From NCBI GenBank assembly GCA_049322215.1, contig JBMORU010000001.1, positions 324,023-388,022 of the forward strand: a DNA stretch of 64,000 bases, read 5' to 3'. The notes beneath the pieces are model-generated. The model searched no databases and was not told the DNA's origin. It saw only the letters and a program-made list of their open reading frames with translations. The stretch comes from Patescibacteria group bacterium (lineage in GTDB: Bacteria > Patescibacteriota > WWE3 > UBA101185 > UBA10185). The position numbers and the translations under genes are program-made. Every line of letters starts with the position of its first letter. Within the stretch, counting starts at the first letter, position 1. Shown here one piece after another: positions 29,050 to 48,782 of the stretch.

Positions 29050-32000
29050 ATGCCTGCAGATGTTATTGAAGCACAAGATAAACAAGACGTATTTGAAAAA
29101 GCCCATAATATTGAATCTGAAAACGAACCCGAAGGTCGTGCCTCTAGAGCTACTTCTAGAGCAATAGAGTTTGGTGAACGTGCTATAGAGGGCATGAATA
29201 GAGATGAAAAAAGACACCATCAGGAGATACTAAACTCCTTTAAAGAGCGTGTTCAAAACCTCAACCCTGATCAACAACCGCCTGACTCTCCTGATAACCA
29301 AGCCTATCATGATCTTCCAAATGAAATTAACGATTATTTGTTTGAACAATGGCAGTTAGGTATAGTTGAAGGGCTTAATTTAATTACCGATCAGGCTGAC
29401 GCCGCCTTACAAAATCCAGATGTTAGAGAAGCAGTATTTCAAGTAATGAATGTGATAGCTGAAAATGGGATTGATTTAGATGATGATGATTTAGAATTAA
29501 GTGATAGGTTAACTCCTATTGTTACCGCTGCGAATCAGTATGTGGAAAATCACTTTATTTCTTTTAATGATTTTGTAGAAAGGCATAACTTAAGAGAATA
29601 TGATGAAAACACAGAACTAGATGAAGTTTATGATTTTCGTGCAGAACAAACTGACTCGCGAGAGGCTGATGTTCAAACTTTAAGTGCTGCTTTAGAAGAA
29701 ATTATTCCCGACCCTAACGCCGAAATAGATAGATCCCCCACCATGGAAATGGGTGATACTACCTGGGGACATTTTGTTCCTAACAGGGAGGCATGGAACA
29801 ATACATTTTTTAATGATTCTAGCGAAGTACTATCTGCGGTAGTTTCTGAAGAATTACGAGATAGAAAGGGAGAAATTCCAAAAGATTTACGTCCTTCCCA
29901 ACATGTCAGTTTAGTAAGTGGTTATACTAGAAGAAAGGGCGACAACGCAATTGTACAAGCGCCAATTTTAAGCATTAATATTAAAAAAACAGAGTTACAG
30001 GTACCACATAACGAAGTTGTAACAGATATAAGAAAATTACGTCCCGACCACCCCACTGTAATGAATCGTCGTATTACTAACCCAGGAGCTTTATATGAAT
30101 GGGAACAACAACTAATGAACGCAGTTATAGAAGAGAATGAGTTTAAAAAGCCAGATGAAAGGCGTGTTCGCTTTGTAACAACTAGTGTAGATAAACAAAT
30201 GAAACCCGTAAATAAACTATTAGAAGTCAGTTATGAAGATTACAATCAAATGGTGCGTGCAACTCAAAGTGCTAGAGCTCAGTATGAACGTGTAGGTATA
30301 AAAGTGGAAAAAGATCCTGAGGCTGAGAAAGAAACTTTAACTGAGTTTGGTAAAAGTTTAAATCGTGCTGAGTATTTAAAAACAAGAGAAAGAATGGCGT
30401 CGTATTTAGATGCAGAAATTTCACGTTTACGTGAAGAGGGCAATGATTATTTGGCAGATCAAATGGAATCTTCTAAAGATAGTTTGGTATATATGTATCA
30501 AGAACTTTCAATTCATTATGATAGTGATGCCTACCATAACGCCGCTGCAAAAGAAAACTTACGCAGTCGACTAGAAGGTGATGATTCAATAGCAGAGGGT
30601 AGCGACGAATGGAATACTATGCTTACCGATGAGATTGCTCAATTACGCTTAGAATATTCTTATAAAGCTGTTGTATATAAAGATCATGCAGAATATTTAG
30701 GCTCTCAAATTGATATGTTGCTAGAAAGTGGAGATCGTGCAAGTGCTCAAGCAATGCTGTTAAACTTGGACAAATTAATAGAAATAGAAGCAAGAGCTTA
30801 TTACTTGACCGATGTTCAAGATATAGTAGAAAATCCTGAAACCTCTACAGACGAAGACCCTGATTATTTACCTTTGAAGTCGGTAGATGAGTTTAGGCAA
30901 GAAATGTACGCTTTATCCGAAGGATTTTTACGTAAAGGCACAAACAAAGAAGCTGAGCTAGTTACAATAGGTGCTGAGATGCAAGAAGAGTGGGGAGAAG
31001 CAATTAGTTTATGGCAACAATTAGATGAAACTTTTGGTGATGAGTTGCATAACCTAAGTTTATTCGAATTAGAGGTTTTAGCTGTATTAGAGGATAAGCA
31101 CTTATTAGGCGCAAGAGTAGAGGCTTTGCAACCAAGTGAAGCAGACATACATACCAGCGACTTTTTGGAAACGCAGTTTAAAGGAATGTTTGGTAGAGAA
31201 CCAACTGAGGAGGAGTGGTATTTTGTAACTTTACAAATGATGCGTCAGCAGTATGACGATAATTTAGCTTCTACTACACACCTAAACGGTGGTATAGAAA
31301 GCTTGATGACTTATGTTTCAAATAACTACAATCAAAACTCTTTAGTAGAGCGCTCGAATAATGGGCTTTTTGAGCATGCTCGTTACTTATTAGATGTTAA
31401 TGAGGTATCTCATTTAGAAGCTGAAAGATTAAGATTGCAAACACAAGCAGGATTAGCTGCAGAAAATGAAGATTTAGAAAGAAAAGATCAAATCAGAGAA
31501 TATATGCAAAAACGCGCACGTGATCGTCAAGAGCATAACGCCGCTGTTCGAAAAATGAATGAGCAGGTTGAACTAAATAACAGAGAACGTAAGAATCAAG
31601 AAGAATTAAGAAAAGCTAATGCTGAATTGTTAAAGAAAAGAAATGAAGCGCGGGATCGCCAACAGCAAGAAATTATAGATCAGGAAGCAAAAGCAAAATT
31701 ACGTGAATCAGAGTCACTTGCTCGTGAGGTGGCAAAGGAAAATTCCGCCGCTTTAGATAATTCTGAGCAAATTGCCGAAGCTCGGGCTGTGCTTCGCGCT
31801 GCTGAAGAGAGGGCTCGTGCCGTAGCAGAAGAAAATGCACAAGGGGTGGATAATTCTGAACAAGTAGCTGCAGCTCAAGAAGAATTACGTGCTGCTGAAG
31901 ACCATGTTCGTGAAATAGCAGAAGAAAATGCAGCTGCAGAATCGGAGCTAAATAATTTACCTGAAGACATAGTTGATGAGGTAGAGCAAGTTACAGAAAT

Positions 32001-32574
32001 TGTTGAACCTGAACCTTCGCCAATAGAGTTTCAAGGTTCGGTAGAAGCTGATGTTGCCTCTATTAAAGAGCTTCTTAGCGTAGGGGAACTTCGTGGATTT
32101 GCTCATAACTACAGAGGTTGGGGTGGTGAAGGACAGCGTAATTTTCATGGAGGTATTTCAGGTAACGAGGCCGATTGGATGCATACCTGGCTTGAAGAAG
32201 AAGTCGCTGTTGATGCTGACTTTGTACAAAATGGTGGCTCACAAGTTGACTTGATAACCTCTCCAGAAATTTTAGAACCCTTAGACTTACAACCGGGGCA
32301 AGCAGTTTTACGTTTAACTTACAGAGTAAATCAAACTGAAGGAAACGAACCTGGTGAAGGTGCCACATTTAATGCATATATGGTTGTTCCAGAAGCTGCA
32401 GGAAACGCTTTTTGTGATTCTATAGAAGCCAATGAACAACAATTTGATTATGCTGCACGTGTAATGGCAGAAGCTTTAGACGAAAAGCTTTATTTAGATA
32501 ACGAAGGGTATAACGTTCCTGCTGGACAGGGTAACAATATACTAAACGTCAGTGGAGTTAAAGTTAATCGTTAG
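29050..32574 (+). CDS. Giant (1174 aa) highly acidic, coiled-coil-rich protein with no TM segment; possible secreted substrate or partner of the upstream ATPase
   Basis: Uninterrupted ORF that is D/E-rich throughout, with a central ERK-rich coiled coil and internal imperfect repeats. No catalytic motif recognised. Confidence 0.6.
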   Translation: MPADVIEAQDKQDVFEKAHNIESENEPEGRASRATSRAIEFGERAIEGMNRDEKRHHQEILNSFKERVQNLNPDQQPPDSPDNQAYHDLPNEINDYLFEQWQLGIVEGLNLITDQADAALQNPDVREAVFQVMNVIAENGIDLDDDDLELSDRLTPIVTAANQYVENHFISFNDFVERHNLREYDENTELDEVYDFRAEQTDSREADVQTLSAALEEIIPDPNAEIDRSPTMEMGDTTWGHFVPNREAWNNTFFNDSSEVLSAVVSEELRDRKGEIPKDLRPSQHVSLVSGYTRRKGDNAIVQAPILSINIKKTELQVPHNEVVTDIRKLRPDHPTVMNRRITNPGALYEWEQQLMNAVIEENEFKKPDERRVRFVTTSVDKQMKPVNKLLEVSYEDYNQMVRATQSARAQYERVGIKVEKDPEAEKETLTEFGKSLNRAEYLKTRERMASYLDAEISRLREEGNDYLADQMESSKDSLVYMYQELSIHYDSDAYHNAAAKENLRSRLEGDDSIAEGSDEWNTMLTDEIAQLRLEYSYKAVVYKDHAEYLGSQIDMLLESGDRASAQAMLLNLDKLIEIEARAYYLTDVQDIVENPETSTDEDPDYLPLKSVDEFRQEMYALSEGFLRKGTNKEAELVTIGAEMQEEWGEAISLWQQLDETFGDELHNLSLFELEVLAVLEDKHLLGARVEALQPSEADIHTSDFLETQFKGMFGREPTEEEWYFVTLQMMRQQYDDNLASTTHLNGGIESLMTYVSNNYNQNSLVERSNNGLFEHARYLLDVNEVSHLEAERLRLQTQAGLAAENEDLERKDQIREYMQKRARDRQEHNAAVRKMNEQVELNNRERKNQEELRKANAELLKKRNEARDRQQQEIIDQEAKAKLRESESLAREVAKENSAALDNSEQIAEARAVLRAAEERARAVAEENAQGVDNSEQVAAAQEELRAAEDHVREIAEENAAAESELNNLPEDIVDEVEQVTEIVEPEPSPIEFQGSVEADVASIKELLSVGELRGFAHNYRGWGGEGQRNFHGGISGNEADWMHTWLEEEVAVDADFVQNGGSQVDLITSPEILEPLDLQPGQAVLRLTYRVNQTEGNEPGEGATFNAYMVVPEAAGNAFCDSIEANEQQFDYAARVMAEALDEKLYLDNEGYNVPAGQGNNILNVSGVKVNR
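31729..31950 (+). repeat. Imperfect tandem repeat of about 93 nt x 2.4 inside the giant ORF (encodes AEENAxxxDNSEQxAxAxxxLRAAExxxR)
   Basis: Direct comparison of 31729-31821, 31822-31914 and 31915-31950 shows roughly 60-70% nucleotide identity and a repeated peptide motif. Confidence 0.5.
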
Positions 32575-33300
32575 TTAAACATAGGCTAGTTCTTTAGGAT
32601 AGAACTTTTTATGTTCAACATTTAATTCCTTATATTTTTCCATATCATTTGTAAGCCTTGCTAATATTATGTTACTTTGTTGCACGCGTTCTAATAACTT
32701 TATTCGTGTAGTTTGTTGAGCTTTTTCTATATCGTTTGTTTTGTTGGTTTCCATATCCATGTAATCTCTTAATTCTTGGCGTGCAAGAGTATCTCTGTAA
32801 TCAGTACTATCTCTATATTTTTCAAACTTTCTTGCAGCATTTGCCATATGAGCCATATGCTCTCTTTTTTCTATATAAGCCTTTTCCTCAGTTTGTTGTA
32901 TATCACTCATTAAGGCGTCAGTATATTCTACAAAGTCTAATATTTCTTTTTGTAGTTCATTATTTTCAAATAAGCCTATGTACTCATTTAATATAATTAA
33001 TCTTCTTAGTACTTTTTTTGATTGAGTGGCATGTTGAATATTAAATATAGAATTTAATTCAATATCATGCTCTAGCATAGTTAAAAACGTTTTTAATCTA
33101 ATAAGTTCTGCTTCTAACATTTCTATTAGCTTTCTGGTTTTTTTCTTTTTTTCTACTATTACAGCAATATTTTCACTACCGCTTTTTCTTATATAAGTGG
33201 CTATTATGATTAATAAGGACACTAAAGATAGTGCCCAAATAACCCAAAGGTATTCCTCAGAGTAAATCAGAAAATTGTCTTGAATAAACTGTAAAGTCAT
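32575..33300 (-). CDS. Bitopic membrane protein with a long cytoplasmic coiled-coil domain (241 aa)
   Basis: One TM helix (aa 17-37), the rest E/K/R-rich heptad-like. Convergent with the giant ORF and abutting its stop. Confidence 0.5.
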   Translation of the reverse strand: MTLQFIQDNFLIYSEEYLWVIWALSLVSLLIIIATYIRKSGSENIAVIVEKKKKTRKLIEMLEAELIRLKTFLTMLEHDIELNSIFNIQHATQSKKVLRRLIILNEYIGLFENNELQKEILDFVEYTDALMSDIQQTEEKAYIEKREHMAHMANAARKFEKYRDSTDYRDTLARQELRDYMDMETNKTNDIEKAQQTTRIKLLERVQQSNIILARLTNDMEKYKELNVEHKKFYPKELAYV

Positions 33301-33361: not shown

Positions 33362-35194
33362 TCAATTATTTGTTGTTCTTTTAAGGTAAACTCTTAGTAA
33401 GCCTTTTCCTATTGATTTTTGTTTGTACAGCTTCATTTTAGGCAGCTCGTTAAGGTTTTGCACATGTGGGCCTCCACAAAACTCTTTACTGAAGGCATTT
33501 TCTAGAGACTTGCCAATATAATAAACTTTCACTTTGTCTCCATATTTTTCTCCAAAAAAGTGTAGTGCACCTGTGTTTTTTGCCTCCTCAATGGGTAATG
33601 TTTCATGTTTCATAGGAATATCTTTACCTGCCTTGCTATTTATTAGTTGTTCTATTTGGTCAATTTCTTGTTCAGTCAGTTTCTTGTCATGAGAAAAGTC
33701 AAATCTTAAGCGTTCCCCTGTAATATTGCTTCCTTTTTGTTCTACCGTTTCACCTAAAGTTTCTCTTAATGCCCAGTGCAATAAGTGTGTTGCTGTATGA
33801 TACTTTATAACATCTTCACTATGATCTGCTAACCCGCCTGCAAATTTTTGCTTTGCCCCTTCGCGAGAAAGTTTTTTGTGTTCTTCAATGTATGAATCTA
33901 TTGCCTGTTCGATATTTTTTATATTTGCATCACTAATGTAATCGGCAACATCTTGTACAAAAATTTCTGAGGGATATCCTAGAGATTGATATAAATCGAA
34001 GCCTATTTTAGCTAGGTTTTCAGTGCTAGTATCGTTTAAGCTTTCAAGAATTTTGGTAGTTTCTTTAAAACCTTTAACCAAGACCTTTCTAAACTTTTCT
34101 TCTTCTTTATGAAAAATTGTTTCTATTTCTTCTTGTTTATTATCAAGTTGTGGATATAGCCACTTAAAGTTTTTTATAACTGATTGTACTAGCGATACAG
34201 AAATATCTTTTTCTATTCCTAATACTTTACCTGCGCGCACCATACGGCGTAACAAACGTCTTAAAATGTATCCTTGGTCTTTGTTACCTGGAGTAACTCC
34301 GTCCATTGCCAAAAATGTTGAGGCTCTCATATGATCTGCAAGTACTCTCATTGCTCGAGTAGTTTCTATGGATTCTTTGTACTGTAAACCTGTAATACTT
34401 TGAATTTTTTCAATAATTGGCCAAAAGTTATCAGTTTCGAAAATATCTTGTTTGTTTTGAACTGCCATTGCTATTCTTTCGAGGCCACCACCAAAGTCTA
34501 CGTTTTTTTGAGAAAGCTCTGCCCAGCCGGTTTCGTTTTTTTTGTATTGCATAAATACGCTGTTTCCGATTTCTAAAAATTCGCTCTCGTTTTGGGCAGG
34601 ATTTTTGCCTAAACCATTTCCATCTTTTCCTACGTAATAAAAAATTTCACTATCGGGACCACCTAATTCCCCAATTGCATCTCCACGTTTCCACCAATTG
34701 TCTTTTTTTCCGTATGCAAAAATTCTTTCGCCAACTTTTGCATCAATGCCGTATTTTTTATAAATTTGGGTGATTATCTTTATAGATTCCTCATCTCTTG
34801 GTGCATCATCGTCCCCCTCAAAAACCGAAGCATACATTTTGTTAATATCCAGCTTGAGAACTTCTACCATAAATTCCCAAATCCAGGGCAACTGCTCACT
34901 TTTAAAGTAGTCGCCTAAGCTCCAGTTTCCTACCATATGAAAAGCTACAGTGTGGTTGTAATCTCCAACTTCTTCTAAATCATCAAAGCGCAAGCATCTT
35001 TGTACATTTAAAATTTTTTTGCCCAAAGGATGGAGCTCTCCAGATAAATAAGGAACTAGGGGAAACATTCCCGAATTTACAAATAGCAAGGTTGGGTCGT
35101 TTTCTGGCACCAAAGATACATTGGGCACTTGCTTGTGACCTTTGTCTTTAAAAAAATTCAGATATTTATTAAGTATTTCTTTAGAACTAAACAT
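33362..35194 (-). CDS. alaS: Alanine--tRNA ligase, short form (catalytic, tRNA-recognition and editing domains; no C-Ala domain; 610 aa)
   Basis: N-terminus FLNFFKDKGH...VPNVSLVP..DPTLLFVNSGM..RCLRFDDLEEVG...HTVAFHMVGNWSLGDYFK is the AlaRS class II signature. The C-terminal HTATHLLHWAL...CGGPHV is the editing-site HxxxH/CxxxH pair. Confidence 0.85.
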   Translation of the reverse strand: MFSSKEILNKYLNFFKDKGHKQVPNVSLVPENDPTLLFVNSGMFPLVPYLSGELHPLGKKILNVQRCLRFDDLEEVGDYNHTVAFHMVGNWSLGDYFKSEQLPWIWEFMVEVLKLDINKMYASVFEGDDDAPRDEESIKIITQIYKKYGIDAKVGERIFAYGKKDNWWKRGDAIGELGGPDSEIFYYVGKDGNGLGKNPAQNESEFLEIGNSVFMQYKKNETGWAELSQKNVDFGGGLERIAMAVQNKQDIFETDNFWPIIEKIQSITGLQYKESIETTRAMRVLADHMRASTFLAMDGVTPGNKDQGYILRRLLRRMVRAGKVLGIEKDISVSLVQSVIKNFKWLYPQLDNKQEEIETIFHKEEEKFRKVLVKGFKETTKILESLNDTSTENLAKIGFDLYQSLGYPSEIFVQDVADYISDANIKNIEQAIDSYIEEHKKLSREGAKQKFAGGLADHSEDVIKYHTATHLLHWALRETLGETVEQKGSNITGERLRFDFSHDKKLTEQEIDQIEQLINSKAGKDIPMKHETLPIEEAKNTGALHFFGEKYGDKVKVYYIGKSLENAFSKEFCGGPHVQNLNELPKMKLYKQKSIGKGLLRVYLKRTTNN

Positions 35195-35440
35195 AAAAAA
35201 ACCTCATCACTACAAACCATACACTAAATGATTTGCAAGGACGAGGTTTTTACCACGTGGTACCACCTTACTTTGTATTTATCTTTCAATAAATACCTTT
35301 TTAGCATTTAAGCATCCATATTCCTTTTACCACAGTATGGTTTCTGTGCTTACTCATCGCAAGTAGCTTACAGGTTGGCATTTTAAACCTGGTCATAACT
35401 AGTGCTGCAAATTTACTAGCAATTGCGTTTTATGTCAACA
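35195..35440 (-). promoter_or_regulatory. T-box riboswitch-like leader upstream of alaS (T-box sequence AAGGUGGUACCACGUGG and a terminator hairpin whose U-tract abuts the AUG)
   Basis: The minus-strand transcript reads ...AAAGUAAGGUGGUACCACGUGGUAAAAACCUCGUCC-loop-GAUGAGGUUUUUUU-AUG. This matches the T-box consensus AGGGUGGNACCGCG; UGGU fits an A73 discriminator as in tRNA-Ala. A 9-bp terminator stem lies at + coords 35197-35250. Stem I and specifier loop not mapped confidently. Confidence 0.5.
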
Positions 35441-35482
35441 TACATTTGTCATTATTTGGAGCATCCAATATAATTTTGGTAC

Positions 35483-36697
35483 ATGTCCCTATTTAATTCT
35501 TCAAAAAAACCTGCTCGCTTTTTAACTGTAGACATAGGTTCAAATTTGGTTAAGTGTATGGTGTTTGAAGTTGACCCTGAGCAAAACTCCAAAATAGTAA
35601 ATGTAATAGGTGAAGGTGCCGAATCGTTGCCAATGGGTGCTACTAGAGGTGGTGTTATTGTGCATCCCGAAGAAGTAGAAGATGCCTTAAAAATGGCACT
35701 AAACAAAGCTACCGAAGATTTAGATCACAAAGTTAAAGATGTGATTTTTGGTGTGAGTGGTGATTTAGCTTTAGGTTTAATGACAACTGTAAAAATAGTT
35801 AGAGGTAAAAACGATGCTGTGTCAGAGAAAGAATTAAATAAAGTTTACGACAAAATTTATCAGGCTTCTTTAGACGAAGCCTCTACACAACTTTATGAAT
35901 ATACCGGTAACTCCGATGTAGACCTTGAAATAGTTACTTCTTCTATGGTTTATACTAAGTTGGACGAAAAGCTTGTATCTAACCCAGTGGGTATGGAAGC
36001 GTCTAAAATGGAAATTGCTTTTTACGCCTGCTTTTGTCCTAGTTTTCATATTCAATCTCTTCAGAATTTAGCAAAAGCACTAGGTTTAAACATTATTGCT
36101 ATTGGTTCCCAAATGTATGCTGCAGCAAAAGCACTACAGCTGTCGAGTTCTGAAGTATTAGATTGTGCCTTAATGGATATAGGCGGGGAACAAACCGATG
36201 TAGCCATAGTTTTTGGTGGCGGCATTGTGGCAACACGTAGCTTGCCAATTGGTGGAAATCATTTTACTTCCGAAATTAGTAAAAAAATGAACATCCCTTT
36301 TGCAGATGCAGAAAAAGTGAAGCAAGAATATTCTTTTGGCAATTTATCTGAAAGCGAAAACATGGTTTTGCAGGATAGTATTGTACCAATAATGGAAACG
36401 TGGCTTAGCGGTGTAGAATTGTTGTTTACAGAGTTTACTGGTGTTAAAACATTTGCTTCCAAAATATTTTTAATTGGTGGTGGTGCAGAACTTCCGGATA
36501 TTGAAGAGTTTATAGCCAAAGAACCTTGGACTCGTTCAATACCGTTTAAATCACCTCCGGAATTTAGTAAACTCTCTTTGGCAGACTTATCACATATAGT
36601 AGATAAAACCGGATCCTTACAGTCTATGTCTGATTTACTACCTGCCTCTTTATCTATAATTTATTTGGAGTTAAACGGGTTTTTAGATGAAAGATAA
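35483..36697 (+). CDS. FtsA-like actin-fold ATPase (FtsA/PilM family)
   Basis: Phosphate-1 LTVDIGSNLVK, connect/phosphate-2 DIGGEQTDVAIVFGGGIVATRSLPIGGNHFTSEISKKMNIPFADAEKVKQEY (like FtsA DIGGGTMDIAVY...GG..T.DIA...). 404 aa. Confidence 0.6.
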   Translation: MSLFNSSKKPARFLTVDIGSNLVKCMVFEVDPEQNSKIVNVIGEGAESLPMGATRGGVIVHPEEVEDALKMALNKATEDLDHKVKDVIFGVSGDLALGLMTTVKIVRGKNDAVSEKELNKVYDKIYQASLDEASTQLYEYTGNSDVDLEIVTSSMVYTKLDEKLVSNPVGMEASKMEIAFYACFCPSFHIQSLQNLAKALGLNIIAIGSQMYAAAKALQLSSSEVLDCALMDIGGEQTDVAIVFGGGIVATRSLPIGGNHFTSEISKKMNIPFADAEKVKQEYSFGNLSESENMVLQDSIVPIMETWLSGVELLFTEFTGVKTFASKIFLIGGGAELPDIEEFIAKEPWTRSIPFKSPPEFSKLSLADLSHIVDKTGSLQSMSDLLPASLSIIYLELNGFLDER

Positions 36698-38240
36698 ATT
36701 AGTTTTAGAATTACATGACGATATAGTATCTGTACTTGCACGAATAGAAGATATTAATGTTAATGAAATAACTGTAGAAATTCCTGAAGGGTCTGTACTG
36801 TTTGATAACAGTATAAGTATTAAACTGTTGTTAAAAGAAGCAGAGAAGTTAGGTAAAAATCTAACTTTGGAGACAACCGATTCTAATGGGCAACAGATTT
36901 TGGCTATGCTCGACCAGGGTGTTAATTCTGGTTTTGATGGCTTTAGGTCAAAGGAAATATCGGAATCAGATTTTGAAGAAGCTCCTACAATGTCTAAAAG
37001 GAAGTTTTCTAAACCAAAATTACCTGCGTTTAAAGTTCCTAGACTCAAATTTCCAAAGCTCAATTTTAAACTTCCTTTAATAATTATTGCAATTTTAATT
37101 TTACTGGGTGGCGTAGGTTACGCTTTAGTTTGGCGTGCTCCTGAAGCAACAGTACGCATGATTGTTGATATTGATCCCTTAACAAAAAGCTTAACTGTTA
37201 AAGTTGTTGGTGATGGCGCAAATACTGAAACCGAACTTCCAACATTGCCCGGGAAAACTATAACAGCTTCTGTAAGTGATCAACTAACAATTGAAACCAC
37301 TGGAGAAAAAACAGTAGGTGAGGTTGCTGAGGGTAAAATAACGGTTTATAACCGAACTGATACTGAAGTAAAGTTGGATAAAGGTACAGTTATTACGTAT
37401 AAAGAAGATGATTCAGATTTAAGTTTTAAACTAAATGACGATGTCACTATTCCGCCCGAAACTTTAGAAGACCCTGCAGATTTAACAAGCCCCAGCATTC
37501 CCGGGCAAGCTGATGTAGATGTAACTGCTTTAGAATTTGGAGAAGCATATAACATTGACAATGATGAAACTTTAGAATTTGAAGACTATAAAAAAGGTGA
37601 GCTTTTTGCAAAATCATCGGGAGCTTTTGAAGGGGGTTCTAGCGAAACAGTTAAAGTTGTTACCGAAGAGGATTTAACCGAGTTATCGGCTAAACTAAAA
37701 GAGCAGCTTACTGAATCCAGTTTGTCTTCTTTAGAAAAAAAGCTAAGTAGTGGTACAAAGCAAATTCCAGGATCACAAGAGGTAACAGTTTCAACAGAAG
37801 ATTTTAGCGCAGAAGTTGGGGATGAAGAAGATGAACTTACCTTAACTCAGGTGGCTACAGCTACGGTTCTTACTTATTCTGAAAGCGAACTCAACAAATT
37901 ATTGGACACTTTGGTAGATAACTTAGTTCCAGATGGCTTTGTTTTATCCGACAAAGATAGAGAGGTGAACGTTGAGATACTTGGTTCTACAGATAGCACT
38001 GCCTTAAGTCTTACTGAAGCAGATTTACAAGTGACTTTAAAAGCTTTTGTAGTGCCCGACATAAATGAGGAGTCAATTAAGTCAGATTTAGCCGGTAAGA
38101 AACTTGCTGAAGCAGAGAAAGTTTTAGGTGGTGTTAGAAACATTTACAAATATGAAATTGAATTAAAAAATTCTGTGCCTTTCTTCCAGCGCATGCCTAC
38201 AAATACCGAGAATATTTCAATAAACATCGAAAGAAAATAA
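36687..38240 (+). CDS. Bitopic protein: cytoplasmic N-domain of about 125 aa, a TM helix, and a large acidic extracytoplasmic domain (517 aa). Possible FtsA-partner or divisome protein
   Basis: Overlaps the FtsA-like gene by 11 nt. Hydrophobic segment LPLIIIAILILLGGVGYALVW. No motif recognised. Confidence 0.5.
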   Translation: MKDKLVLELHDDIVSVLARIEDINVNEITVEIPEGSVLFDNSISIKLLLKEAEKLGKNLTLETTDSNGQQILAMLDQGVNSGFDGFRSKEISESDFEEAPTMSKRKFSKPKLPAFKVPRLKFPKLNFKLPLIIIAILILLGGVGYALVWRAPEATVRMIVDIDPLTKSLTVKVVGDGANTETELPTLPGKTITASVSDQLTIETTGEKTVGEVAEGKITVYNRTDTEVKLDKGTVITYKEDDSDLSFKLNDDVTIPPETLEDPADLTSPSIPGQADVDVTALEFGEAYNIDNDETLEFEDYKKGELFAKSSGAFEGGSSETVKVVTEEDLTELSAKLKEQLTESSLSSLEKKLSSGTKQIPGSQEVTVSTEDFSAEVGDEEDELTLTQVATATVLTYSESELNKLLDTLVDNLVPDGFVLSDKDREVNVEILGSTDSTALSLTEADLQVTLKAFVVPDINEESIKSDLAGKKLAEAEKVLGGVRNIYKYEIELKNSVPFFQRMPTNTENISINIERK

Positions 38241-47408: not shown

Positions 47409-48401
47409 ATGAATAGAGACATTGTAATTTCTATTAAAACTGTAATTTTCACTCTTCTATTATTTTTAGGCATATATGTTGTGTATTTAGTTGGCCCCTT
47501 TTTAGTGCTAGCTCTTATTTCTCTTATTCTTATGCTTGCATTAGAGCCTGCAATTAAATATTTAATGAATAAGCATTTTTTAAACAAACCAGTTTCAAGA
47601 TCACTAGCGGTTACCATAACTTATTCACTCTTTCTTTTAGCTGTAATTTTTATTTTAGCTACCGGGTTACCTCCTGTTTTGTCACAAGCCAGAAAATTGA
47701 TAGCAAATATTTCAGGAGCTTTAAGCGGAATTCCCGGTTTTGAGCAGTATAGTGATATTTCTTCAAGCATCTTGTCTCAAATTCCTCAAATATCTGATAA
47801 TGCACTTTCAGCTGTTTTTTCGTTTTTTTCAAATGTATTCGCTGCTATTACAGTAATTGTGTTAGCTGTTTATATGTCTTTAGATTGGCCAAACATTAAA
47901 GAACGCTTTTTACAGCTTTTTCCGTCCAAAATTAAAAAAGAGGTAGCTGCAGGTATTATTGAAGTGGAAAGCAATATTGGTAGTTGGATTAAAGGACAAC
48001 TACTATTAATGGTTTTTGTTGGATCTTTAAGCTTTATTGGGTTAGCCGCTATAGGAGTTGATTATCCTCTTGCTTTAGGGCTAATATCAGGTTTATTAGA
48101 AATAGTTCCATTGATTGGGCCCTTAATTTCAGCAGTTTTAGCTGGTGTGGTAGGGTTTTCTGAGTCCCCTTTGCAAGGATCCGCAGTAATAGGTTTATTT
48201 GTTTTAATTCAACAAATAGAAAATAATTTTTTGGTTCCTAAAATCATGCAAAAAGTTGTTGGTTTTAGCCCCTTAGTTATTTTAATAGCAGTATTAATTG
48301 GTAACGATGTTTTTGGATTTTTGGGTGCTCTTTTATCTATACCTGTAATGTTAATTGGAGTTGTTATTGTTAAAAGATTTTTGCATTATTCTGATTCGTA
48401 A
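47409..48401 (+). CDS. AI-2E family (UPF0118/PerM-like) transporter
   Basis: Eight TM helices in a pattern typical of AI-2E family permeases (GxLxxIPLIGP motif: LEIVPLIGPLIS). Confidence 0.65.
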   Translation: MNRDIVISIKTVIFTLLLFLGIYVVYLVGPFLVLALISLILMLALEPAIKYLMNKHFLNKPVSRSLAVTITYSLFLLAVIFILATGLPPVLSQARKLIANISGALSGIPGFEQYSDISSSILSQIPQISDNALSAVFSFFSNVFAAITVIVLAVYMSLDWPNIKERFLQLFPSKIKKEVAAGIIEVESNIGSWIKGQLLLMVFVGSLSFIGLAAIGVDYPLALGLISGLLEIVPLIGPLISAVLAGVVGFSESPLQGSAVIGLFVLIQQIENNFLVPKIMQKVVGFSPLVILIAVLIGNDVFGFLGALLSIPVMLIGVVIVKRFLHYSDS

Positions 48402-48782
48402 TTGCAGGAGGCGTATAAGCCAGATTCTGTTTAAAGTGGCCATCTATCTTTGCCCCGTCTTTTTACCTTGTCGAGCAAACTTCATTCTACTGTGTAGAAA
48501 ACGGTAATGTCGCGGGTTGCTGCGGGTGGGATTGCCCGTTTCACTCCTTTTCCATACCTGAGATATTTTTAGCGATTAGCTAAATGCAATCATGTGGTTT
48601 AGGAAAAAGCTCGTCTCTGCTGCTCTCAAAGAATGTCAATTCATTCTCTGCCTTAATGCCTTTTCAAGCATTAAGTACCAGCTGTTGCCAGTCGGAGGTT
48701 ACCCTCCGTTCCCTTGCTCTATGCAGTCTGGACTTTCCTCTAGCTAAAGTTAGCCAGCGACCACACCGCCTCCTGCGCTGTT
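48402..48782 (-). ncRNA. rnpB: RNase P RNA, bacterial type (rnpB)
   Basis: The minus strand reads 5'-GCAGGAGGCGG...GAGGAAAGUCCAGACUGCAUAGAGCAAGGGAACGGAGGGUAAC... ...ACAGAAUCUGGCUUAUACGCCUCCUGC-3'. P4 halves GGAAAGUCCaGaC / ACAGAAuCUGGCUUA carry compensatory changes versus the E. coli GGAAAGUCCGGGC / ACAGAACCCGGCUUA. A P1 helix joins the two ends. Length about 380 nt; a GC-rich island with no ORF. Confidence 0.8.

Follow-up and report, generated by a model that had tools for sequence, protein, structure and literature searches.

Is alaS, the gene for alanyl-tRNA synthetase (AlaRS), controlled by a T-box riboswitch in a member of the Patescibacteria, and if so, how might such a riboswitch recognize its tRNA? 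The question is raised by a 64-kb stretch of contig JBMORU010000001.1 (hereafter the window, whose numbering is used unless a related locus is named), in which a preliminary description, made from the letters alone, had pointed to a T-box-like leader upstream of alaS. Here we argue that the alaS leader (~35403-35195, minus strand) is very probably a T-box riboswitch specific for tRNA-Ala, built around a minimal decoding module. An Ala-sensing element in Patescibacteria that combines an ultrashort Stem I, a minimal Stem II and a terminator is supported as a variant of the known T-box, and all of the evidence is computational. The preliminary description had missed this non-standard architecture: the leader lacks the distal elbow platform, its specifier is apical, and its Stem II is reduced to a mini-hairpin.

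Detection of the leader and its relatives

The sequence AAGGUGGUACCACG, at 35269-35256 of the minus strand, agrees with the T-box consensus AGGGUGGNACCGCG at 12 of 14 positions, and to this extent the original observation of a near match upstream of alaS holds. As a signal by itself, however, the short motif fails: the 12-nt T-box motif is expected 0.63 times per window at one mismatch or fewer, and 45 of 100 shuffled sequences contained at least one match. Looser regular expressions for the motif were noisy, and an exact search for GGTGGNACCNCG, covering the first 80 of the related loci, returned only one Bacillales leader. Given this chance level, significance has to rest on a match to the full covariance model and on homologous leaders elsewhere.

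Such a match exists. The Rfam T-box model RF00230 aligns over its entire length (1-219) to 35405-35234 of the minus strand with 43.8 bits, corresponding to an E-value of 1.8e-8 locally and of 2.3e-6 when the whole window is searched on both strands with all 4227 Rfam families; in E-value mode it is the only T-box-like match in the 64 kb. The element ends at 35195 and the AlaRS open reading frame (ORF; 33362-35194) begins at 35194 on the same strand, which places the element in the 5′ leader position of the synthetase gene. The RF00230 search of the minus strand that had been suggested comes out in favor of the T-box reading, with a significant match, although its score remains below the family gathering score of 93; a scan of the whole window at the gathering threshold found no Rfam family. 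The low score has a visible cause: where the model has the distal two-thirds of Stem I (~72 positions), the leader has 9 nt. Alignment to the model is also poor in the Stem II region.

Homologous leaders were found only among close relatives. Genome and metagenome collections gave 160 AlaRS loci, at most 59% identical to the AlaRS of the window, and none of these carried a leader of the window type; other T-boxes did come from them, namely L038 (with L114 and L154), L103 and leaders of Firmicutes type. The contigs of the 12 nearest AlaRS proteins were then retrieved (L161-L172). Two of them carry such a leader: L163, whose AlaRS is 67% identical and whose divergent neighbor is likewise pilM-like, scores 49.0 bits with RF00230, and L171, with an AlaRS 62% identical, scores 45.1 bits, both below the gathering score. 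The deletion in Stem I is shared, with 74 model positions replaced by 10 nt in L163 and 73 by 8 nt in L171. The other 10 of the 12 nearest loci have short intergenic regions with no T-box, among them L161 and L162, which share the gene order of the window. A second protein search, seeded with P0004, returned nothing closer than the window itself.

A covariance model of the discriminator domain alone (R1), constructed from eight T-box sequences that included the window but excluded L171, was run over the window and all loci. It scored the window, a member of its training set, at 45.3 bits and L171, outside the training set, at 37.1 bits. R1 T-boxes occurred only in the window, L163 and L171, in L038 (equal to L114 and L154), in L103, which carries a full-length T-box leader (RF00230, 121.9 bits), and in several Firmicutes-type loci.

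The L038 element is of separate interest. At 2790-2995 of this locus, from the candidate phyla radiation (CPR) genome Candidatus Gottesmanbacteria GW2011_GWA2_43_14, lies a sub-threshold alaS T-box (40.2 bits) with an intermediate Stem I, in which only one 6-bp distal hairpin stands above the side bulge that holds the specifier, GAA-GCC-G. Its Stem II has an S-turn (GAA/AGUA), and a 9-bp hairpin followed by UUUAUUU ends 13 nt before the AUG.

Comparison of the leaders supports the predicted helices. A MAFFT alignment of the whole leaders left Stem I's base helix, Stem II and Stem IIA out of register, so these helices were compared by hand. Between the window and L163, 33 pairs were aligned (upper Stem I, Stem III, terminator), and all are standard in both sequences; nine of them show double compensatory changes (one in Stem I, five of the eight in Stem III, three in the inner terminator), and five show a one-sided change to another standard pair. 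For the terminator alone, 21 of 21 pairs are kept in L163, with three double and five one-sided changes. When the 3′ partner was slid by 1-3 columns as a control, 39-53% of cells were paired and 0-2 double changes appeared. RNAalifold, applied to the three sequences, counted 13 compensated pairs in a fold that includes Stem IIA, Stem III and the terminator. These counts, drawn from the small sample of two or three sequences, support the proposed structure and do not prove it. Together, the end-to-end RF00230 alignment, the homologous leaders and the Ala specifiers described below support the original reading of the alaS leader as a putative T-box.

Anatomy of the leader

The coordinates of the predicted features are collected in Table 1. 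In all three leaders, Stem I terminates in the specifier loop. They have 8-10 nt in place of 72-74 model positions, and with these positions goes the distal platform of AG bulge and distal loop (the interdigitated T-loops) that stacks on the tRNA elbow. What is left is an upper stem of 4-6 bp, CAGG/CCUG in the window, CAGA/UCUG in L163 and CGGA/UCCG in L171, with compensatory changes; Stem I pairs fully in each leader except for one U.U at the end of the L171 base helix. Of the three kink-turn (K-turn) signatures, UGA...(G/A)A with a 5′ bulge plus GA and a 3′ GA, that of L171 is canonical; L163 shows a 4-nt bulge, and the window, whose 3′ side reads AA, has a degenerate form.

A Stem I with a specifier loop carrying GCU or GCC had been named as something to look for, and it is present in each case: on a K-turn-based Stem I, the window and L171 carry GCC-A, and L163 carries GCU-A. 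The apical loops, of 11-13 nt, read UUUAAAAU-GCC-AA, AUGUAGU-GCU-AC and UUAAAAU-GCC-A, respectively, so that the specifier position (U-GCC-A, U-GCU-A, U-GCC-A) combines a conserved U, an Ala codon with a synonymous third base, and a 3′ purine. Among the other alaS T-boxes compared, the specifier is GCC in L038, GCA in L103 and GCU in L079.

The specifier loop has a further property. Together with the Stem I 3′ strand it forms a segment, UGCCAACCUG (35371-35380), that is complementary to a stretch of the T-box sequence, AAGGUGGUA (35261-35269). The pairing would comprise 6-7 pairs including G.U, contiguous in L163 and L171 and interrupted by one A.G mismatch in the window. The complementarity arises because U-GCY-A resembles the NCCA 3′ end of a tRNA, and it may be fortuitous or may reflect a contact in cis in which the leader imitates the end of the tRNA. 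RNAalifold proposed this pairing as well; it competes with Stem I and was not adopted in the mechanism.

Stem II is a hairpin of 14-19 nt: 15 nt in the window, 18 nt in L163 with its extended base (12 nt without it) and 16 nt in L171. The counterparts of the window hairpin, CUGC-GAAA-GCAG in L163 and UGCUGA-GAGA-UCAGCA in L171, differ in sequence, and all of them pair. The loops are of the GNRA type in L163 and L171, and the GAUGA pentaloop of the window could take a GNRA-like fold. Stem IIA behaves similarly, with CGUG-AACUUA-CACG-UUA in L163 and ACGG-AAGCCUAA-CCGU-AAG in L171 again differing in sequence and again pairing. The F-box-like segment is CACGUUA in L163, the closest to the consensus CCGUUA, CCGUAAG in L171, and CUGUGGUAA in the window. 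A candidate IIB partner, UAUGG, lies at 35320-35316 of the minus strand, and two alternative pseudoknot partners fit all three leaders.

Stem III has 8-9 bp and is closed by GNRA loops (GAAA in the window and L163, GCAA in L171); the purine position before it reads CAAG in L171 and AAAG in the other two leaders. Downstream, the T-box bulge begins with UGGN and is flanked by antiterminator helices A1 and A2, of which A2 varies among the three leaders. The hairpin that follows is larger than the 9 bp first attributed to it. It is bipartite, with 12 + 11 bp over 35251-35197 (outer helix AAAAACCUCGUC/GAUGAGGUUUUU, inner helix UUGCAAAUCAU/AUGGUUUGUAG, loop UUAGUGU) and a folding energy of -26.2 kcal/mol. 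The antiterminator 3′ strand CCUCGUCCUU, 10 nt at 35246-35237, doubles as part of the 5′ arm of this terminator, so the two folds cannot coexist; the mutual exclusivity that had been put forward for testing is thus borne out by the predicted structures. The antiterminator of the window has an energy of -4.4 kcal/mol, and in L163 the two values are -31.2 kcal/mol for the terminator and -3.5 kcal/mol for the antiterminator. Known T-boxes collected in TBDB have terminators of -19.5 +/- 7.9 kcal/mol and antiterminators of -7.4 +/- 4.2 kcal/mol.

The hairpin is followed by U7 in the window and in L163 and by U5 in L171. In the window, U7 (35201-35195) does run into the AUG (35194-35192), as originally stated, whereas the start codon lies ~45 nt downstream of the terminator in L163 and ~80 nt downstream in L171; this spacer is gone in the window. 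L171 carries a second hairpin, GUGGUC...GACCGC followed by U6, at 1139-1172 between its T-box terminator and the alaS start, and this may be a tandem terminator.

Table 1. Predicted features of the alaS leader in the window, in the order in which they would be transcribed.
Feature	Position	Strand	Basis or remark
-35 hexamer TTGACA	35433-35438	-	10/12 promoter match with 17-nt spacer
-10 hexamer TAAATT	35410-35415	-	Same promoter scan; A/T-rich
Ultrashort Stem I	35364-35401	-	RF00230 alignment, helix tables; minimum-free-energy folding predicts the hairpin independently
Stem I base helix UAGU/GCUA	35401-35398 with 35367-35364	-	
K-turn, 5′ UAU-GA and 3′ UAA	35397-35393 (5′), 35370-35368 (3′)	-	Kept in RF00230 alignment with proximal stem
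Stem I upper stem CAGG/CCUG	35391-35388 with 35374-35371	-	
Stem I apical loop, 13 nt	35387-35375	-	
Specifier GCC (Ala)	35377-35379	-	Read from sequence; U 35380 before, purine A 35376 after
Minimal Stem II hairpin CUUGC-GAUGA-GUAAG	35349-35363	-	Helix comparison and folding; without distal helix or S-turn internal loop
Stem IIA hairpin CACAG-AAACCAUA-CUGUG, then F-box-like GUGGUAA	35331-35348	-	Helix comparison, folding
Purine run AAAAAG ("RAG" position)	35302-35297	-	
Stem III GUAUUUAU(U)-GAAA-(G)AUAAAUAC	35296-35275	-	RF00230 alignment, folding, helix comparison
Discriminator/antiterminator	35237-35269	-	RF00230 alignment, posterior probabilities near 1
Antiterminator helix A1 AAGG/CCUU			4 bp
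Antiterminator helix A2 ACGUGG/CCUCGU			5 bp and one U.U mismatch
T-box bulge UGGUACC, 7 nt	35265-35259	-	Begins UGGN; flanked by A1 and A2
Terminator / possible sequestrator hairpin	35197-35251	-	Folding (-26.2 kcal/mol), RNAalifold, covariation
GAGG, possible Shine-Dalgarno	35202-35205	-	7 nt 5′ of AUG; paired within terminator 3′ arm
U7 tract	35195-35201	-	Directly 3′ of hairpin; abuts alaS AUG 35194-35192

Promoter, gene and surroundings

The sequence TTGACA-17-TAAATT ranks among the best promoter-like sites within the 20 kb scanned, and an exact TTGACA lies just 5′ of Stem I in the window, L163 and L171, with an A/T-rich -10 element in all three. From the promoter spacing, transcription is predicted to begin near 35403, at the base of Stem I. 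The leader would then be ~209 nt long (35403-35195), and the 288 nt at first given as its length is instead the intergenic gap separating alaS from an FtsA/PilM-like gene that runs divergently (35483-36697, plus strand). The top-scoring promoter-like site of the 20 kb, TTGTCA-17-TATAAT (11/12, 35446-35483, plus strand), stands back to back with the promoter of the alaS leader, with 7 nt between them. As 8 nt separate its end from the ATG of the FtsA/PilM-like gene, the mRNA of that gene would be leaderless or nearly so.

The alaS product has 610 amino acids, with catalytic and editing domains (Pfam tRNA-synt_2c, E 7.8e-108, and tRNA_SAD) and without the C-terminal C-Ala domain. Its nearest named relatives, at 59-65% identity, are mostly assigned to "candidate division WWE3". 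Short AlaRS proteins without C-Ala occur as well, at 40-48% identity, across metagenome-assembled genomes of CPR and DPANN lineages and in some reduced Bacilli-type assemblies (Scatosoma). A GGAG or GAGG motif at -15 to -8 was found for only ~10 of the 53 long ORFs of the window, suggesting that the use of Shine-Dalgarno sequences in this genome is limited; the GAGG before alaS is placed where those ORFs carry theirs.

Three ORFs near alaS, at 29050-32574 (plus strand, 1174 amino acids), 32575-33300 (minus strand, 241) and 36687-38240 (plus strand, 517), have no Pfam match at E <= 0.001. ARAGORN found no tRNA genes in the 64-kb window. Across the related loci it found six tRNA-Cys(GCA) genes 5′ of alaS in relatives that lack the T-box: such a gene adjoins alaS in L164 and L167 (1085-1156), and in L001 it lies at 2342-2416, ~580 nt upstream. 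Elsewhere in the window, at 48400-48776 of the minus strand, is a divergent bacterial RNase P RNA (RF00010, class A) that matches the full model (1-367) with 84.7 bits and an E-value of 3.5e-24. Because the match does not reach the gathering score of 100, this RNA would escape a standard scan.

Mechanism, alternatives and place among T-boxes

We propose that the nascent leader would fold a K-turn-based Stem I of 4-6 bp, whose apical loop would offer GCC-A to the GGC anticodon of tRNA-Ala. As a general rule tRNA-Ala carries A73, and the 3′ ACCA end of an uncharged tRNA would pair with the UGGU of the T-box bulge, thereby stabilizing the weak antiterminator (35269-35237). With the antiterminator held, RNA polymerase would continue into alaS. 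A charged tRNA, or none, would instead let the far more stable 23-bp hairpin (35251-35197) form and, with U7, terminate transcription just before the AUG. In the window the terminator would also bury GAGG, and transcripts that escape termination would probably be poorly translated unless the antiterminator is held open. The analysis shows similarity to the family, the anatomy, folds that exclude each other, Ala codons where the specifier lies, and covariation; tRNA binding, the response to charging, and the division between termination and translational masking are inferred.

We favor transcription termination as the probable main output, because a U-tract directly follows the hairpin in all three leaders and because the start codons of L163 and L171 lie outside the hairpin, well downstream of it. 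Only in the window, with its GAGG inside the 3′ arm, may this hairpin have a second role in masking the ribosome-binding site. The additional translational control suggested in the preliminary description is therefore plausible for the window itself, but it is not general for the class: in L163 and L171 the hairpin lies ~45 and ~80 nt upstream of the start codon.

Comparison with the standard alaS T-boxes of Firmicutes (RF00230; for example that of Clostridium acetobutylicum, PMC4695836), represented here by L079, L129, L132, L135 and the full-length L103, separates what is kept from what is lost. The regulated gene, an Ala specifier, the basal K-turn, Stem III, the UGGU bulge, and the antiterminator/terminator overlap with its U-tract are held in common. 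The base after the specifier is a purine in L103 and a C in L079. In contrast to the standard elements, the window lacks ~72 distal Stem I positions, among them those of the elbow platform (AG bulge and distal loop); its specifier is apical rather than in a side bulge, its Stem II is a mini-hairpin without an S-turn, and its host is a metagenome-assembled genome of the Patescibacteria. RF00230 scores are 44-49 bits for the three leaders versus ~120 bits for L079 and L103.

A second point of reference is the class of ileS T-boxes with an ultrashort Stem I known from the actinobacteria Mycobacterium smegmatis, M. tuberculosis and Nocardia farcinica (Sherwood et al., 2015; structures 6UFG and 6UFM; PMC7583486). 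As in that class, Stem I stops just above the K-turn in an apical loop where a purine follows the specifier, and an elbow platform is missing; in the window alone, the hairpin also covers a Shine-Dalgarno-like sequence beside the AUG. The actinobacterial elements bind tRNA-Ile, act on translation only, and use a long Stem II (~70 nt with a pseudoknot) whose S-turn clamps the codon-anticodon helix (PMC7583486 and a single-molecule study); when this Stem II was shortened, binding of tRNA was lost. In TBDB, the only translational T-boxes described are Ile elements from Actinobacteria. The leaders studied here differ in their Ala specifier, in a mini Stem II with a GNRA-type loop, and in a hairpin followed by U5-U7, which in two of the three members lies far from the start codon, an arrangement that fits transcription termination.

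The glycine T-boxes of glyQS provide a partial rationale for the missing S-turn. These also dispense with the Stem II S-turn, which has been attributed to the all-G-C helix GGC:GCC (PMC7583486), and a GCC:GGC helix for Ala would likewise consist of three G-C pairs. The GCU of L163, however, would not give three G-C pairs, and, unlike glyQS, the leader described here has no platform and keeps a small Stem II and the Stem IIA hairpin.

Several observations weigh against reading the leader as a working tRNA-Ala T-box. The RF00230 score is less than half the gathering score. Only three members of the class were found, and the element is absent from 11 of the 13 nearest relatives, a patchy distribution. 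The K-turn of the window is imperfect, with A.A instead of A.G followed by C.U. A tRNA-Ala gene was found by ARAGORN neither in the window nor in any related locus retrieved. The 20-kb scan counted 19 intrinsic terminators versus 13.5 +/- 3.7 in shuffled sequences, with no clear enrichment. Transcriptional T-boxes generally need a long Stem I to bind tRNA fast enough (PMC7583486), and the leader has no recognizable S-turn Stem II, an element essential in the actinobacterial T-boxes with a short Stem I. A leader with neither elbow platform nor S-turn offers no evident means of binding tRNA tightly or quickly enough. We advance only tentatively, as a possibility that we judge somewhat less probable than its opposite, the stronger proposal that this is the smallest natural T-box decoding module yet, a transcriptional one in which a K-turn, an apical specifier on a Stem I of 4-6 bp and a mini Stem II would suffice without elbow contact.

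The same observations can be turned toward other explanations. That short or ultrashort Stem I elements have so far been tied to translational T-boxes (PMC7583486) would fit a purely translational T-box like those of actinobacterial ileS, in which the hairpin sequesters the ribosome-binding site, the U-tract is an AU-rich spacer, and no termination occurs. GAGG does lie at -11 to -8 in the 3′ arm of the window hairpin, which ends 7 nt from the AUG, and the hairpin of the Gottesmanbacteria leader (L038) is also only 13 nt from its AUG. We nevertheless consider this explanation unlikely, given that in L163 and L171 the hairpin and U-tract lie ~45 and ~80 nt upstream of the start, with the AAAGGG motif of L171 outside the hairpin, that a U5-U7 run directly follows a hairpin of -26 to -31 kcal/mol in all three leaders, and that most genes in the window have no Shine-Dalgarno motif.

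Decay offers a different account of the missing parts, the leader then being a non-functional remnant of a standard T-box whose hairpin serves only as a constitutive attenuator or 5′ stabilizer. Parts held essential elsewhere, namely distal Stem I and most of Stem II, are indeed absent, and L161 and L162, the closest relatives with conserved synteny, have lost the element altogether, as have most near relatives overall. Against this reading, three lineages whose AlaRS proteins are 33-38% different keep the promoter, K-turn, specifier with its purine, GNRA-type Stem II loop and Stem III, their T-box sequences differ at 1 of 14 positions, the antiterminator/terminator overlap is retained, and changes in the helices are compensatory, with no broken pairs. 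Moreover, unless it could be opened, a constitutive terminator of -26 kcal/mol before the single copy of an essential synthetase gene would do harm. Decay thus appears very unlikely. Least credible is resemblance by chance, with GGUGGUACC falling beside a hairpin in an AU-rich intergenic region. The 12-nt motif alone, expected ~0.6 times per window at one mismatch or fewer, and the sub-threshold RF00230 score would allow it, but the whole-window E-value of 2.3e-6, the location on the correct strand directly 5′ of a synthetase gene, and two independent homologous leaders that covary leave it effectively refuted, with a probability close to nil.

A tRNA-Ala-specific T-box with a minimal decoding module would matter for how T-boxes are thought to hold their ligand. 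T-box riboswitches are the textbook example of a structured RNA that reads another structured RNA. In the current picture, tRNA is gripped either by a long Stem I platform, as in transcriptional T-boxes, or by a long S-turn Stem II, as in the translational, short-Stem-I elements of Actinobacteria. The three leaders appear to have neither grip, yet they keep the other functional elements and a strong terminator. If the small module acts in transcription as tentatively proposed, it would contradict the current rule by which a long Stem I platform is required of T-boxes that control transcription, a single hairpin in the window would serve as both terminator and mask of the ribosome site, and the T-box would be a native regulator in CPR bacteria.

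Elements that score at about half the Rfam gathering score are missed by standard annotation. We found no paper joining T-boxes with CPR or Patescibacteria names in what was a limited literature collection, which is not proof of novelty. Should these leaders work, they would mark a lower limit for the decoding of tRNA by mRNA and provide a compact (~170 nt) natural scaffold for structural study and engineering. They would also mean that feedback from tRNA charging onto a synthetase gene exists in the small-genome bacteria of the candidate phyla radiation.

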